The notes: generated from the letters alone by a model not told the origin. A stretch of DNA of 62,759 nucleotides, filler included, from Basidiobolus ranarum (GCA_040143965.1; 44 parts of 44 records of this genome joined end to end with filler, not necessarily neighbours in it); one strand, 5' to 3'. Positions 14,328 through 53,461 are shown, counted from the first letter of the whole stretch. Numbers and translations: made by a program.

Positions 14328-14438
14328 ACACAGCCAGATATTGCATATTCTGTGGGAGTTATGTGCCAATATCTTCAAAATTATGGATCTGATCAAATCA
14401 TAGCAGTTAAGTGGATTTTCAGATATTTGAAAGGTACT
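14328..14438 (+). pseudogene. Copia RT C-terminal fragment abutting the viral D5 gene
   Basis: QPDIAYSVGV...AVKWIFRYLKGT; same family as 10616-10725. Confidence 0.9.
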
Positions 14439-14439
14439 C

Positions 14440-15063
14440 GTATTATTCTTACAGGAACCCAATCCAGAAGAAAAAATAAAAGGAGGTATAGTAAAAGAAT
14501 TAACAGGGAACGATAGAATTTATGTCAGGAATTTGTTTAAGAGTCCTAGATCTATACAAGTTAAGGGTAAAATTGTCCTGGTTTGTAATAATATTTTATC
14601 GATTCCGGATATGGATTCAGCACTAAGGCAAAGAACAATAGTTATCCCATTTATTAGTACATTTGTTCGAGATAAACTTTGTTTACAAGATAATGTATAT
14701 CAAATGAACTCTAATGTTGAAACTATACTTGAAGAAAGTCAAGAAGCTTTTTTATATATACTAACCCAAGAATATGCAACATTTAAACAAAAAGGACTAG
14801 AAATACCTGAATTTATGAACAAAGTAACACAAGAGTATCTAGATGCTTACAATTATCTGTTAACATTCAAGAAAAAATATGTAATATATTCTGAAGGATC
14901 TATATATAATATACATGAGGCATACAAAATGCTTAAGGATTGATTTACAACAAATAATCCCTGTAGAAAGATACCAACTATGGAAGAATTTTCCAAGGTT
15001 CTCAATACAAATTCTAATGGACAATTAGTTGAATGCAGAGTAACATACCAGTTTGGAGGATAA
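14440..15063 (+). pseudogene. D5-like SF3 primase-helicase C-terminal half (NCLDV-like), one internal TGA at 14941
   Basis: Walker B LFLQEP, KELTGNDRIYVRNLF (B'), KIVLVCN (motif C), ALRQRTIVIPF (Arg-finger region); frame reads on through the TGA to TAA at 15061-15063. Confidence 0.88.
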
Positions 15064-15066
15064 TTT

Positions 15067-15354
15067 TTAAAAATTATATGTTTTTTTACATGATATACAA
15101 TAACACATCCATGTTGATCCCTTGTTGGCTGATCAAAGTTGAAATTCTCTAATTATAATAGTTGTTTTATCACAATATTTGCATGGTGTATTACTTTTTA
15201 TTTTATTTACATCTTTATCATCTGCGTATCTACCAAAAATGCTATTTATCATTGAATCGAGATTAAATTGGTCCCCAATCAATAGCTTGTCTAGTATTTG
15301 TACATTTCTATTGGAAATTATTTTTTTTAGGTAGGCTAACATATATTCATCCAT
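15067..15354 (-). pseudogene. Short TFIIS-like zinc-ribbon transcription elongation factor (about 95 aa, virus-like)
   Basis: Read through the TGA at 15133: PCKYC...REFQL*SANKGSTWMCYCISCKK, matching CxxC...QxRSADE(G/P)xT...CxxC. Confidence 0.85.
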
Positions 15355-15542
15355 GAATTGGAAAGATGATTAGCAAGAATTTTACAATGATAATTCTGAT
15401 CTAATAAAGACAGACTCAAAATTCTTTCCTTATCTGATGATATTTTTGTCCCTAGTCCATCAAAAGTGTTTAAAATATTTTGAATGGTATCTTTAACAGA
15501 AATCCAAGTAGTTGATGTTGGTCAATCTCCATATTCATCTAG
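15353..15542 (+). pseudogene. Uracil-DNA glycosylase N-terminal part, cut by a copia LTR
   Basis: Manual translation MNWKDD*QEFY.../...FVPSPSKVFKIF*MVSLTEIQVVDVGQSPYSS resembles family-1 UDG VF..F....VKVVIxGQDPY. Confidence 0.75.
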
Positions 15543-15658
15543 TGTCAAAATTAGCATTGCCTAAACACCTATATAGTCATATATAGCTTAGTACTTAGTT
15601 ATCTTATAATTCACTAAGATATTATCAATTATTCTGAATTGGAATTTACTTAGAATAT
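15543..15658 (+). mobile_element. Copia LTR family C inserted into the UDG gene
   Basis: TGTCAAAATTAGCATTGCCTAAACACC matches the LTR starts at 11254 and 47454. Confidence 0.92.
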
Positions 15659-22533: not shown

Positions 22534-22606
22534 CAACCCTACCGGGGGTCGAACCCGGGACTTTCCGCTTAGGAGGCGGACGCTCTATCCACTGAGCTAC
22601 AGGGCC
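22534..22606 (-). tRNA. tRNA-Arg(CCT), intronless
   Basis: GGCCCTG TA GCTC AGTGGATA GAGC G TCCGC CTCCTAA GCGGA AAGTC CCGGG TTCGACC CCCGG TAGGGTT G, followed by a T-rich tract. Confidence 0.93.
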
Positions 22607-28628: not shown

Positions 28629-29470
28629 TTTAAATCTAAATTAAAACTTAATTAAAAACCAAATTCGAATCTAAATTTAAAACTTTTAAAAATAATTTCG
28701 TAAAATATTATTTAGAACTTGATTTAAATCTAAATTAGAACTTAATTAGAAACCAAATTCGAATCTAAATTTAAAACTTTTTAAAATTATTTCGCAAAAT
28801 ATTTTTTTTAAACCCTAATTATGATCTAACTTAGAACTCTCTCACAGACTTGATTTAAAACTTTTTAAATTTATTTCGCAAAATATCTTTTTTAAACCCT
28901 AATTATAATCTAACTTAGAACTCTCTCACAAACCCAATTTAAAACTTTCTAAATTTATTTCGCAACAAGTTTATTTTAGAACCCAATTAGAATCTAACTT
29001 AGAACTTAATTTAAAACTCTCTCACAGACTAGATTTAAAACTTTTTTAAAATTATTTCGCAAAATATCTCTTTTAAACCCTAACTATGATCTAAATTAAA
29101 ACTTAATTAGAAACCAAATTCGGATCTTAATTTAAAACTTTTTTAAAACTCTCTCACAGACCAGATTTAAAACTTTTTAAAATTATTTCGCAAAATATCT
29201 CTTTTAAACCCTAACTATGATCTAAATTAAAACTTAATTAGAAACCAAATTCGGATCTTAATTTAAAACTTTTTAAAATTATTTCGCAACAAACTTTAAT
29301 TAGAACCTAATTAGGAGCTTAAATGTAAATCTAATTCGAGACCAAATTCGAATCTTAATTTAAATCTTCTTCGCAAAATATCTCCTTTAAACCCTGATTA
29401 AATTCCAACTTAAAACTTAATTTAAAACTCTCTCACAAACCCGATTTAAAACTTTCTAAATTTATTTTAT
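28629..29470. repeat. Complex AT-rich modular repeat array
   Basis: Shuffled modules TTTCGCAAAATA, AAACCCTAA, CTCTCTCACA, CCAAATTCG(A/G)ATCT, ATTTAAAACTTT. Confidence 0.9.
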
Positions 29471-29685
29471 ACAAAACTAAATATTTCAGATTAAATACAT
29501 TATTCACATAATTGTATCCCACCATTTTAAATATAAACATGGTATTACTACAAAAATACTTCAGATTAACTATTATTACGACGAATACATCTACTTACAA
29601 AAATCGTCGAGGCTAAAAAAATTATTAATTACATTAAACTATATACAAATTTATAAAACATCCAAATGTCTTAACAACGTTAATC

Positions 29686-29957
29686 TTATATCCCAATAGA
29701 CCTTTTTACTTTCCCCACTAAACTATAATATGTATAAGGTATTAGATAATCTTTAACCAATGGAACAACACCTTCTGAATTCGCAACTAATGTATAAATC
29801 TCATTGGATATTATATCCAAATGGTCAACAGGTAACATATTACGAGTAGCAACGTAAATATTCTCTTTTGAAATTTTTGTGTTAGAAACAGATTCTCCCA
29901 CTTTAGATGTCGGTTTGTCTTCATGAACATACTTTCCCGAAAAAGCAAAAACTTGTT
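29686..29957 (-). CDS. C-terminus of an unknown AT-rich ORF, open to the contig edge
   Basis: QVFAFSGKYVHEDKPTSKVGESVSN...LVGKVKRSIGI*; no stop up to the linker. Confidence 0.45.
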
Positions 29958-42395: not shown

Positions 42396-43295
42396 TGTCA
42401 TTATTCTGATCTTGGCATACCAATCCACTACAAATAGAACTACTCTATTATTAGATTTTGACATCATATCTGCTGTGCCATCCCTTCTTGGCAATCTGGT
42501 GTCAGTTCATCCAGATTACCTTGTATGGAAATGATGTTCTTTGGAACATTCCATGAAATCAAACCAATCAAGTCATCCCACACATAGTGTATTTCCACCA
42601 AGACCTTCCATGGAAGGTCACCTGATCAACCTTACATCATCCCTCTTTGTATTGGTCCTTGTAGTCCCCAACACCCCAACTCTTGAACTTGCCATGGTAT
42701 ATTCCCTATTCAGTATATTATGTTTCACCTTGCAATATCTATATAAGCCCCATGTATTCCTTGATCAGACCTCAGTCTGATCAATGCCAGTTATCAATAA
42801 AGATTCTNNNNNNNNNNNNNNNNNNNNNNNNNNNNNNNNNNNNNNNNNNNNTTAATTAATTAANNNNNNNNNNNNNNNNNNNNNNNNNNNNNNNNNNNNN
42901 NNNNNNNTAGAAGGTTAATAAAGGTTGGAGGCTAGTTGATCCATCTCAATATATCCATCACCAATTTTGCAGATACACTTTTAATCAGATTAGCATACAG
43001 TACTACTGACAATTTCATATGAAGCATTGTTTCAACAGGTGCACTCCATTGGGAACTCCCAGAATGTATAGCAAGGGCCTATAAACTCAAAGCATAGTGG
43101 AAGATGCAGTGGGGAAAGTATTGAATACTGGCATATATTCAATCTATTTTCTTTAAACCTGTAATAAAGTTTTTCATGTCTAATTACAAAATCTTTGCAC
43201 AGTTGCTGTATCTGCCTGAAATCTGCAAAAGTGAGTGTATTTGATAAGAATACATTTGCAATATCCACAAACTGCTCCCAGTGTTGCCAATACTT

Positions 43296-48955: not shown

Positions 48956-50190
48956 GGGTTAGGTTTGGGAGCCTGTTCAAAATGGCTTCATGAATTAGAG
49001 AAACTGATGATTTTCACCAATTGATTTATTGAGCTGAAAGTTGCCATTTATAGTTTTATCAAGAGGTAACTAAAGTAATGTGCAAAATTTGTTTAGGAAG
49101 GTCTGAGACCTTCCAAGCTGGTAAACATATTCTACTTAAATTCTGATTGCAAATAACTAGTAATATCTTGGTGAAGTACATGATGTCTAAATACTAAGCT
49201 ATATATGTCTATATTGGTGTTTAGGCAATGCTAATTTCAATAATGTTTAGCTCATATTGCTAAACTCAATCTAATAGAATTATACCTAGATACAGGAGTA
49301 AAAATTTCTGTATCATCTATTTCTGGTTTTTGGGAATAACCTTAGGCTACCAGTCTAGCCTTGTACCTTTCTATATGGCCATCAAATTTGTATTTAACTT
49401 CACACATGCATTGGCAGCCAATTGATTTTGTATTATCTGGCAATGGCAAGTTATCTAAAGTACAAGCTTGATAATTAATCAAAGCCTAGAACTTGTCAGC
49501 AATTGCAAATCTTCAGATTTCTTTGTGATGCCCATTCAGGCCCTCTTTTACATTCTAGGGTTCATGTATTTGATCTGTGCAGGCATAGGCCCTGTCTTGG
49601 GAGTTATTAATTAGTAAGCTAGGCTGTTTCTGATCCAATTTGATCTCCCCTTTTAGGATAGAGATTGTACAGCTTCTGACATTGTGTTGGACACTACAGT
49701 AGGCTAAGTTCTGGTTGAAGAGTCCACAGGAATGCTACTTTCTTCATTGTTTTAGCTTGAAGCAAGTTGAATGATTGAGTGAGACAAAATTAATTTTTTT
49801 CCTATGCTGGGATCATTTTTACCCTAATAGAAATTTGAGGATTGTTATTGTAAGAAAACTGTCACAATTTTAATCCATTTGGGTTCAACCAATTACTTAC
49901 CGTCATAAAATCATCATGTTATATTTGATTTTAATCAATNNNNNNNNNNNNNNNNNNNNNNNNNNNNNNNNNNNNNNNNNNNNTTAATTAATTAANNNNN
50001 NNNNNNNNNNNNNNNNNNNNNNNNNNNNNNNNNNNNNNNACATAATTCACATATATATATAATATATGTTCCGATTTTCAGCTAAGTGATATTTGACTAA
50101 ATAATGTTGACTAACTAATATGTGATATATGAAATAGTTAGGTGTATAAAAGTAGGGATAACATATATGATAAAGACAATAAACTTCAAC

Positions 50191-50653
50191 AGCCATTACC
50201 CCCATTAGTGTAAATGCTAGCTCTCCAACTTTATCAAGAGGTATAGAAAATTCATCAATAGAAAAAATTTTGTTGTATATACAAAAATTTTCAGAAGATT
50301 CTGACAAAAGAAACCAAAAAACTTTAGAGGTTCTCAATCAGACCCTACTTGAACTCTTGAATTCTATATCTAATCAAGACAAATTGTTCACCAAGTCTAT
50401 TGATGAAATGGTTTCTGTGATGAAAGACGCCAACATTTCTGAACGTACCAAGAACCAATTGACAGAACAAATTATCAAACTTCTAGATGAAAAAATTTAC
50501 AAAAAAGGCTTAGTATTAATAATAACTCCAAAAGGAGGTAAAATGCAACCAGTAGATAATTTAGATGATTTAGAACAGTATACTAAAGATAAAAATGTGT
50601 ACGTTACTGGCAGTATTTCAGATATAACTAAGGGACTTTTCCTAGTTGACTGA
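50191..50653 (+). CDS. Orphan intronless AT-rich ORF (putatively viral), 5'-truncated by reversed LTR B (50040-50190)
   Basis: Frame open from the LTR junction (AITPISVNAS...LLYIQKF...GLFLVD*); convergent with UDG, 10 nt between the stops. Confidence 0.6.
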
Positions 50654-50663
50654 TTTTTAAAAA

Positions 50664-51140
50664 TTATTTATGCCAAGATATAGGAAGTTTGTTTATTTTA
50701 GTTAGCATCTGGTTGATTTTAACAAATATATTACTATGAGAGAATGTTTTGTTTAAAAATCTAGATACAAGATGATGAACATTTATTATATGAGTAACCG
50801 GCAATATATCTGCTAATGCCCAACTATCTCTTCCCATTAAACTGTATACAACATTAGGTTGATTACATTCTATATATTTAATTACATTTCTAGTAAACAT
50901 TTCCCAAAAAATTTTATGATTGTTAGAAAACTTGCAGTTAGATATTCCATGAGTCCATGATACATTTATCAAAAAAACTCCTTGTCTCATCCAACTATAA
51001 AAAGTGTCATATGGATTAGGAGGAGGTAAATCAAACTTGTATGCAATTTTGTCAACAATCACTTGAGCAGTTTTAGGAATAGATTGACATTTGTGTGATG
51101 GCATTATCAGAATTCCACTAGCAAAAAAATTATTTGTAAA
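50664..51140 (-). CDS. Uracil-DNA glycosylase central and C-terminal part (virus-like), 5'-fused to copia gag
   Basis: FASGI, SWMRQGVFLINVSWT, HKIFWEMFTRNVIKYI, VVYSLMG, HHLVSR, FSHSNIFVKINQML match family-1 UDG motifs. Confidence 0.85.
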   Translation of the reverse strand, partial: FTNNFFASGILIMPSHKCQSIPKTAQVIVDKIAYKFDLPPPNPYDTFYSWMRQGVFLINVSWTHGISNCKFSNNHKIFWEMFTRNVIKYIECNQPNVVYSLMGRDSWALADILPVTHIINVHHLVSRFLNKTFSHSNIFVKINQMLTKINKLPISWHK

Positions 51141-51364
51141 ACTTGTGTGGCAGGCTATTCAGGACTGTAACTATGATATCTTATTCAGTGGTAGGTTCTC
51201 CAATGCATTCCATTTCATCCACTAAAATAATGACTCTATTAATTAGTGATTTGATGTCTTCTCCTGGCTTCATCTTTAAGTTAAAGAATTGTCTTCTTAG
51301 AAACATCTTGTTGGCAGCAGAACTTGTTTGGTAGGTGTCTTACAAGGCTTTCCATACCTTCTTG
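51141..51364 (-). pseudogene. Copia gag fragment
   Basis: Homologous to about 41780-41999. Confidence 0.88.
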
Positions 51365-53019: not shown

Positions 53020-53461
53020 TGGACCTCCTGGTGGAATAGTCACTTGGTCCTAAGCTCATGGTGGCTAATCTTCCTACCATTCCTAAGATGGATATTGAGT
53101 AAAGTGATGGTTACAAGTTACTTGAGAAGAGAGACCAATCAATACAGTAGGGGCTACTAATGACGGCGGTCATTCTGATCCAAAGCCCACTTCTACATCG
53201 ATGCCTTATTCAACAACTACCGCAAAACCAACTTCAATAACCACTGACAAACCCCCTTCAACAACTGCTACTTTAACTAAACCAACTGTTACCAATCCAG
53301 GTACTGGTGCCTGTGCAGGCATTACAAATTGGGAAGCTAACAAGGCATATAATGGTTCTCAAACGGATGCTTTTGATGGACATCTCTGGCAAGCCAAGTG
53401 GTGGACACCAAATGAATCTCCTAGTAAACAAGGAGTATGGACAGATTTGAGATCTTGTTAG
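53020..53461 (+). pseudogene. Chitin-active protein 3' part: disrupted upstream domain (possibly AA11 LPMO-like), P/T linker, CBM5/12 chitin-binding module
   Basis: WEANKAYNG...FDGHLWQAKWWT...PS..GVW; upstream GPKLMVANLP with frameshift and stops. Confidence 0.7.

Follow-up and report, generated by a model that had tools for sequence, protein, structure and literature searches.

The window analysed here, a stretch of DNA of 62,759 nt, is made up of 44 contigs sorted by length (1,334 down to 1,323 nt, and numbered from 0) and separated from one another by 44 N, TTAATTAATTAA and another 44 N (1335-1434, for example). Two of these contigs, contig 10 (14328-15658, GC 0.286) and contig 35 (50040-51364, GC 0.30), carry genes of the type seen in nucleocytoplasmic large DNA viruses (NCLDVs), and each contains a short palindrome, built on the 10-mer TTTTTAAAAA (T5A5), at the point where two convergent genes end; the GC content of most other contigs in the window is 0.33-0.39. 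The two contigs appear to be the halves of a single eroded endogenous viral locus, and the palindromes may be the remnants of a two-way gene-end signal of the virus from which it descended.

Organization of the viral-like locus

The NCLDV-type genes seen are a D5-type primase-helicase, a family-1 uracil-DNA glycosylase (UDG) and an open reading frame (ORF) with a TFIIS-type zinc ribbon that scores just under the cut-off; they are accompanied by an orphan frame, ORF X (Table 1), and no capsid, polymerase or RNA polymerase genes are present in the window. In local tblastn comparisons with P0041, a relative of the UDG, residues 1-34 matched 15353-15430 (+; E 5e-4) and residues 19-68 matched 15406-15555 (+; E 1.8e-14) in contig 10, while residues 58-227 matched 51167-50667 (-; E 9e-72) in contig 35. 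Since one UDG relative maps across both contigs, contigs 10 and 35 are the halves of one locus, and as judged from the sequence the joined gene order is rightward D5, palindrome 1, leftward zinc-ribbon ORF, rightward UDG, palindrome 2 and leftward ORF X, with the palindromes about 1 kb apart in the ancestral virus. The preliminary description of this DNA had used the shared palindrome to tie the two contigs to the same virus; the tie holds, and extends to the same locus, but it is the split UDG gene and not the motif that decides it. P0041 and P0002, the closest D5 relative (703 aa), are each encoded on a single 5,407 nt contig from the same source, and D5 and UDG may thus be neighbours in that relative also. 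Contigs this short may also be misassembled.

The D5 gene is represented by its C-terminal 208 codons, and it ends in the same ...VTYQFGG as P0002, so that the TAA at 15061-15063 is its natural stop. Its only named relative is a hypothetical protein of Basidiobolus ranarum (48% identity), and it is 38-47% identical to proteins encoded on contigs of up to approximately 100 kb; the relatives carry PF08706 and PF19263. An ESM Atlas search with D5 returned only generic D5/primase clusters, pattern scans of genome contigs with D5 alignments gave 250 and 29 matches among which no relative was confirmed, and a tblastn search of a phage collection with P0002 found only distant phage primases of less than 27% identity.

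Within the zinc-ribbon ORF, positions 2-38 of the 39 in the TFIIS-type zinc ribbon profile (PF01096) align with residues 62-98 of the 100 read, which are the last 37 residues, with a score of 20.6 bits (cut-off 21; E 4e-4), and the domain ends two residues ahead of the stop; a PDB search with this ORF gave no TFIIS match. The label 'TFIIS-type' is thus a reasonable one for the predicted product, whereas the full TFIIS named in the preliminary description goes beyond a marginal zinc-ribbon match in a 95-codon ORF with an in-frame TGA. The stretch 15339-15540 on the minus strand was considered as a frameshifted TFIIS N-terminus and rejected, as it corresponds to the N-terminus of UDG read in antisense.

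The contig 35 portion of UDG finds family-1 UDGs in the PDB with E values down to 1.9e-7, and both it and P0041 end in ...WHK, so that 50664-50666 is the natural UDG stop. The motif of family-1 UDGs is GQDPYH, in which the Asp is catalytic. Both the UDG of the window (15517-15541) and P0041 (residues 57-63) have GQSPYSS, and the viral UDG may therefore be non-working as a glycosylase. The ATGs of the divergent zinc-ribbon ORF (15354-15352, minus strand) and UDG (15353-15355, plus strand) overlap by 2 nt, which leaves this pair without intergenic DNA for promoters (15352-15355). ORF X has an unusual length for its composition, with 3 of 2000 resamples reaching at least 145 codons, and no homologue of it was found among longer proteins or in the ESM Atlas; the sole match in a library of 1.84 billion representatives was the window's own 77 aa piece, the best PDB match had an E value of 0.29, and Pfam gave nothing under E 0.03.

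Table 1. Features of the two contigs; gene ends are written in the sense of each gene
Feature	Position	Strand	Sequence	Remarks
Palindrome 1	15060-15077		ATAATTTTTAAAAATTAT	Perfect, 18 bp; arms 9+9 nt, 100% complementary, loop 0 nt
Palindrome 2	50651-50666		TGATTTTTAAAAATTA	TGA-TTTTTAAAAA-TTA
D5-type primase-helicase, C-terminal 208 codons and stop	14437-15063	+		82% identical to P0002 residues 496-703
Zinc-ribbon ORF, 95 codons	15067-15354	-		ATG at 15354, TAA stop 15067-15069
UDG, N-terminal codons 1 to ~63	15353-15541	+		ATG 15353-15355
UDG, codons ~67-227 and stop	50664-51152	-		66% identical to P0041 residues 68-227
ORF X, orphan	50197-50653	+		TGA stop 50651-50653; ~151 codons open in viral core
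D5 end			TAA-TTTTTAAAAATTAT	T7 run follows 18 nt past stop
UDG end			TAA-TTTTTAAAAATCAG	
ORF X end			TGA-TTTTTAAAAATTAT	
Zinc-ribbon ORF end			AATTTTTAA-AAATTATCC	T5 run overlaps stop
T7 run	15081-15087	+		18 nt downstream of D5 stop, within opposite-strand zinc-ribbon ORF
copia pol fragment	14328-14438	+		90.6% identical to contig 7; abruptly adjoins D5 codon 496
Long terminal repeat (LTR) start	15543-15658	+	TGTCAAAATTAGC...	83-95% identical to copies in contigs 33, 7 and 34
Internal copia gag fragment	51139-51360	-		91.4% identical to contig 29 300-521; PF14223, E 1.6e-10
Start of second LTR family	50040-50191	-	TGTTGAAGTTTATTG...; TGTTGAAG...	98% identical to contig 22

Palindromes at the convergent gene ends

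Both palindromes of the preliminary description are present as it gave them. The first is perfect over its 18 bp and overlaps the D5 stop (15061-15063) together with the stop and the final three codons of the zinc-ribbon ORF (15067-15078); the second, nearly identical, lies between the convergent stops of ORF X and UDG and has a perfect palindromic core of 12 bp, ATTTTTAAAAAT, at 50653-50664. The stops are separated by 3 nt at the first junction and by 10 nt at the second, where these 10 nt are exactly T5A5. The longest word common to contigs 10 and 35 is the 15-mer ATTTTTAAAAATTAT, which starts at 15063 and at 50653 and so occurs at both palindromes, in the same register to the plus-strand stop; the coding sequences that flank it are unrelated between the two sites, and the 15-mer is therefore not part of a duplicated segment. 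At three of the four gene ends (D5, UDG and ORF X) the stop is directly followed by TTTTTAAAAAT, and a T5 run is found at all four, three times right after the stop and once overlapping it.

The 10-mer occurs five times in the window, compared with 0.80 expected, and none of 100 shuffles reached five; three of the five sites, however, are copies of one satellite in contig 19 (27208-27741; a 125 nt tandem unit, 3.3 copies, 84% match), where it has another context, CTC-T5A5-CATA. Within the viral cores, 2,044 nt in all, 0.066-0.105 occurrences are expected under Markov models of orders 0-3 and two are seen [P(at least 2) 0.002-0.005]; that both should fall at junctions has a probability of about 6e-7 by position, using the order-1 rate. 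Under a more permissive null, in which the sequence is A/T only at 50:50 and five offsets are allowed, the shared 15-mer has a probability of about 1.5e-4. Runs of at least four T followed by at least four A are absent elsewhere in the viral cores. The T5A5 element at the gene ends is thus real and unlikely to be due to chance, though the sample consists of two junctions of one locus.

Comparison with known gene-end signals

Folded as RNA, the 18-mer of the first site forms at best a stem of 7 A:U pairs with a 4 nt loop (-0.3 kcal/mol), and the 16-mer of the second stays unfolded (0 kcal/mol); the 60 nt contexts fold no better than shuffled sequences (z 0.30, 0.06, 1.09 and -0.69), and no longer inverted repeat, even an imperfect one, was found around either palindrome. 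Palindromic signals at the 3' ends of genes have been described in the Mimiviridae, Pithovirus and Marseilleviridae (PMC4402537, PMC5413956, PMC8557863). Published stem thresholds for this 'hairpin rule' are at least 13 bp with a loop of at most 5 in Mimivirus, at least 15 bp in Megavirus, and at least 10 bp with a loop of at most 10 in Pithovirus (PMC8557863), and the Mimivirus signals are described as lacking conservation at the sequence level (PMC4402537). The elements described here are like these signals in being A/T-rich palindromes just past the stops, including those of convergent genes, but unlike them in having a stem of no more than 7 bp of A:U with negligible energy, and a conserved sequence, identical over the 15-mer. 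The analogy with Mimivirus drawn in the preliminary description therefore fails on two defining features, the stem being too short and unstable and the sequence being conserved. A signal of this type, in which a transcript hairpin is cut by a viral RNase III before polyadenylation, would suit a palindrome at the gene 3' ends of an AT-rich, NCLDV-like locus, and the class is an established one in such viruses, but the energetics come close to refuting it and we consider it very improbable.

The poxvirus early terminator is TTTTTNT (T5NT) on the coding strand. The palindromes resemble it in placing a T5 run downstream of a stop in the AT-rich DNA of a virus of cytoplasmic type, but at each site both strands read TTTTTAA, so that T5NT, to which the T-rich comparison in the preliminary description would correspond, is absent from either strand of both; the only T5NT-type match near the first junction is the T7 run past D5. 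Poxviruses are described as having polyuridylate termination signals (PMC4402537).

The nearest working analogue that the T5A5 dyad resembles would be the polyT terminator of African swine fever virus (ASFV). Terminators of this type, which are also those of RNA polymerase III and of archaea, have at least 4-5 T on the coding strand where the gene ends. According to PMC10965686, the ASFV core RNA polymerase recognizes polyT and terminates there without hairpins or additional factors, longer runs being more efficient; one terminator, in the form of polyT/polyA, can act for genes that lie on opposite strands; and premature transcript ends are frequent, polyT being widespread. The likenesses are a coding-strand T run at or after the stop with no need of a hairpin, a single site able to serve both strands, and the problem of readthrough between convergent genes. 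In contrast to the ASFV terminators as there described, the T run here is only five long, is fused to A5 in a perfect dyad and abuts the stop without a 3' untranslated region (UTR), and 14-15 nt are conserved between the two junctions, a length of identity that suggests a more specific element than a run of T.

A full-text literature search gave, among the matches listed, no account of the 10-mer as an NCLDV terminator, and two fungal giant-virus accounts (Mycodnaviridae; Rhizophagus, PMC10640383) make no mention of palindromes, terminators or hairpins, nor the former of promoters. While gene-end palindromes and T runs are of a known kind in NCLDVs, we thus found no printed precedent for a sequence-conserved, non-folding T5A5 dyad that abuts the stop.

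Decay of the locus and its retrotransposon borders

The viral genes contain a total of four in-frame stops and one frameshift. In D5 there is a TGA at 14941-14943, in a column that is Trp in all eight aligned homologues, and in the zinc-ribbon ORF a TGA at 15133-15135, which by ungapped mapping falls at position 19 of the TFIIS ribbon profile, a position that we take to be Arg; the N-terminal portion of UDG has a TAG at 15371-15373 (Trp in the relative), a TGA at 15481-15483 (Arg in the relative) and a frameshift near 15400-15430. The possibility that TGA is a sense codon was rejected, since stops at differing residues (both Trp and Arg), one of them a TAG, together with a frameshift, point to decay and not to a single recoded stop codon. 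In-frame stops at Trp and Arg positions would fit decay by transitions in a CpG-depleted genome; the CpG observed/expected ratio is 0.21 in the host contigs, a strong depletion, and for the viral cores it is 0.31 (14437-15541) and 0.19 (50197-51152). The label D5 in the preliminary description accordingly holds for the type of protein but covers a truncated gene with a nonsense mutation.

All four ends of contigs 10 and 35 match repeats in other contigs (73-98% identity). D5 is truncated on its 5' side against the copia pol fragment, and ORF X has lost its 5' part to the start of the second LTR family. The first LTR start, TGTCAAAATTAGC, is preceded by UDG sequence (codon ~63) and not by the polypurine tract found in contigs 7 and 33, and the copia gag fragment adjoins UDG codon ~67. 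The break in UDG at codons ~63-67 (15541-15543 and 51139-51155) thus has an LTR start on one side and a gag piece of the same orientation on the other. It looks like a 3'-truncated LTR-gag fragment lodged within UDG, some 9 nt of the gene being left unaccounted for, and such a fragment may have originated by deletion after a full insertion or by capture of a partial cDNA. We leave open, and do not adopt, the alternative that a copia element captured viral RNA by template switching; it was suggested by the colinear look of the flanks, but on the joined contigs the boundaries resemble LTR starts abutting target DNA together with truncated internal pieces.

Taken at the sequence level, the locus is best described as a dead, eroded endogenous NCLDV-like element that was broken up by transposons, and not as a live virus, so that the 'viral contigs' of the preliminary description would be pseudogenized DNA bordered by LTR-retrotransposon sequence. 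Eroded giant endogenous viral elements have been described in Rhizophagus irregularis (PMC10640383) and Euglena gracilis (PMC12455990), and they share with this locus the presence of NCLDV-derived genes in a eukaryotic genome, pseudogenes and transposon invasion, but here only ~2 kb is left, in two 1 kb islands among LTR-retrotransposon pieces.

The rest of the window is in keeping with this setting. A Pfam match with E <= 0.01 was obtained for 24 of 137 stop-to-stop frames of at least 70 aa, and in 20 of these 24 the domains are those of LTR retrotransposons (such as copia gag, RVT_2, rve and Pol_BBD), distributed over 14 of the 44 contigs and mostly fragmented, which identifies the background as that of a transposon-rich eukaryote. 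A ciliate-type host code (TAA/TAG=Q) was rejected because the longer frames that it gives cross the TTAATTAATTAA spacers and reflect AT-richness. Among the few non-transposon protein signals in the host contigs is a chitin-binding CBM_5_12 domain in an ORF at 53126-53458 (+; 27.4 bits, cut-off 26.2), and the sole Rfam match in the window is a tRNA-Arg (CCT) at 22534-22606 (-; 61.9 bits). Contig 20 (28629-29957; GC 0.239) is repetitive and has no similarity to other contigs; its units contain AACTTTTTAAAATTATTTCG, a near-match to TTTTTAAAAATTATTT of contig 35, a resemblance that is probably due to base composition.

Discussion

The two palindromes could owe their likeness to coincidence, with base composition and coding constraints producing a shared word that never had a function, and several observations that weigh against a T5A5 signal belong here. 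Facing stops (TAA/TGA ... TTA) are already partly palindromic, and the locus is 71% A+T, so that short A/T runs are common; perfect palindromes of at least 12 bp number 24 in the window, which is about the number expected by our own arithmetic from base composition, and they include another perfect 18 bp palindrome, GACCTTCCATGGAAGGTC, at 42602-42619, which follows closely on the gag ORF of a copia contig and shows that the viral piece is not alone in having a palindrome of 18 bp. A shared word of at least 15 nt appeared somewhere in 9 of 300 contig pairs resampled under a Markov-1 model. T5A5 itself is present three times in a host-type satellite, and variants with at least four T followed by at least four A six times in another. 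The evidence comes from two junctions, both in one 2 kb locus, and at one of them the zinc-ribbon ORF has its T5 run before and in the stop rather than after it; ORF X, at the other, is taken to be a gene on the length of its open frame alone. Finally, the coding pieces contain eight sense-strand runs of at least five T (six of them in UDG), where shuffles give 4.3 +/- 1.9, together with 12 runs of at least five A, and since T runs are not depleted in the genes, a bare T5 would be no strong terminator here unless the runs arose during decay; C-to-T decay could have created some of them. Set against all this, both occurrences fall exactly at junctions and in the same register to the plus-strand stop, and the frequency of the 10-mer in the viral cores, its position and even the A/T-only null give the low probabilities reported above; on balance we think coincidence unlikely.

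If the element is functional in origin, it need not have acted on transcript ends. A symmetric site for a dimeric protein, a roadblock, or the boundary of a recombination, mobile or invertible cassette would make sense of the perfect dyad symmetry and of 15 nt conserved beyond what a T run needs, and in the joined map the two copies bracket one divergent pair, the zinc-ribbon ORF and UDG (~1 kb); this argument is a purely positional one, however, no recombinase or nuclease gene is present in the 2 kb seen, and the cassette is not found elsewhere in the window, which together leave it improbable. We would give as little weight to a host-type A/T-rich region for 3'-end processing, as used by RNA polymerase II, in a virus transcribed in the nucleus. 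Dependence on the nucleus does occur among NCLDVs (Marseilleviridae and Medusavirus), and a U-rich followed by an A-rich run next to the stop would suit such a region, but the 15-mer contains no AATAAA, 3' UTRs this short (0-10 nt) do not resemble those of nuclear genes, and the TFIIS-type gene, marginal as its score is, points to a viral transcription apparatus.

We tentatively favour, at a little short of an even chance, the reading of the T5A5 dyad as a signal that marked gene ends or stopped transcription from both sides in the ancestral virus, with only two junctions to go on. The palindromes would be fossil copies of a single short gene-end element defined by its sequence, a stop followed by TTTTTAAAAAT, placed where two adjacent pairs of genes met tail to tail in a compact NCLDV-like viral locus. 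Gaps of 3 and 10 nt between convergent stops, and overlapping divergent starts, mean that signals in such a locus must sit at the gene boundaries themselves. T5A5 is its own reverse complement, and each of two converging polymerases would therefore first meet a U5-coding run, at or after the stop of its own gene. In the free ancestral virus the element would then have served as a shared two-way termination or 3'-end signal, of the hairpin-independent polyT kind, and would have kept convergent transcription out of the opposite gene; the TFIIS-type gene, for all its marginal score, suggests transcription by machinery that the virus itself encoded. The bidirectional termination or polyadenylation signal of the preliminary description is in this way upheld as a plausible role for an element that is non-random and abuts the stops, although the Mimivirus analogy offered for it falls away. 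In the present genome the element would be without function, the locus being a dead endogenous copy that is nonsense-mutated, frameshifted and cut by LTRs.

A broader proposal, that the stop-abutting dyad TAATTTTTAAAAAT is a general, sequence-specific gene-end element of an undescribed NCLDV-like lineage that endogenizes in transposon-rich, possibly fungal genomes, and that either the viral polymerase or some dimeric factor reads it symmetrically from the two strands, strikes us as rather doubtful.

The firmer and more practical result is the assignment of both contigs to a single eroded viral locus, in which retrotransposon sequence divides the UDG gene. Annotation should accordingly treat them as an endogenous relic, and neither as a co-assembled virus nor as evidence for an alternative genetic code. 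If the favoured interpretation of the palindromes is correct, a giant-virus lineage known only from fragments would have possessed a compact, sequence-defined two-way gene-end signal, distinct both from the hairpins of mimiviruses, which are long and non-conserved, and from the simple T runs that ASFV and poxviruses use, and TAATTTTTAAAAAT would provide a cheap nucleotide probe for further pieces of this virus in fragmented assemblies.

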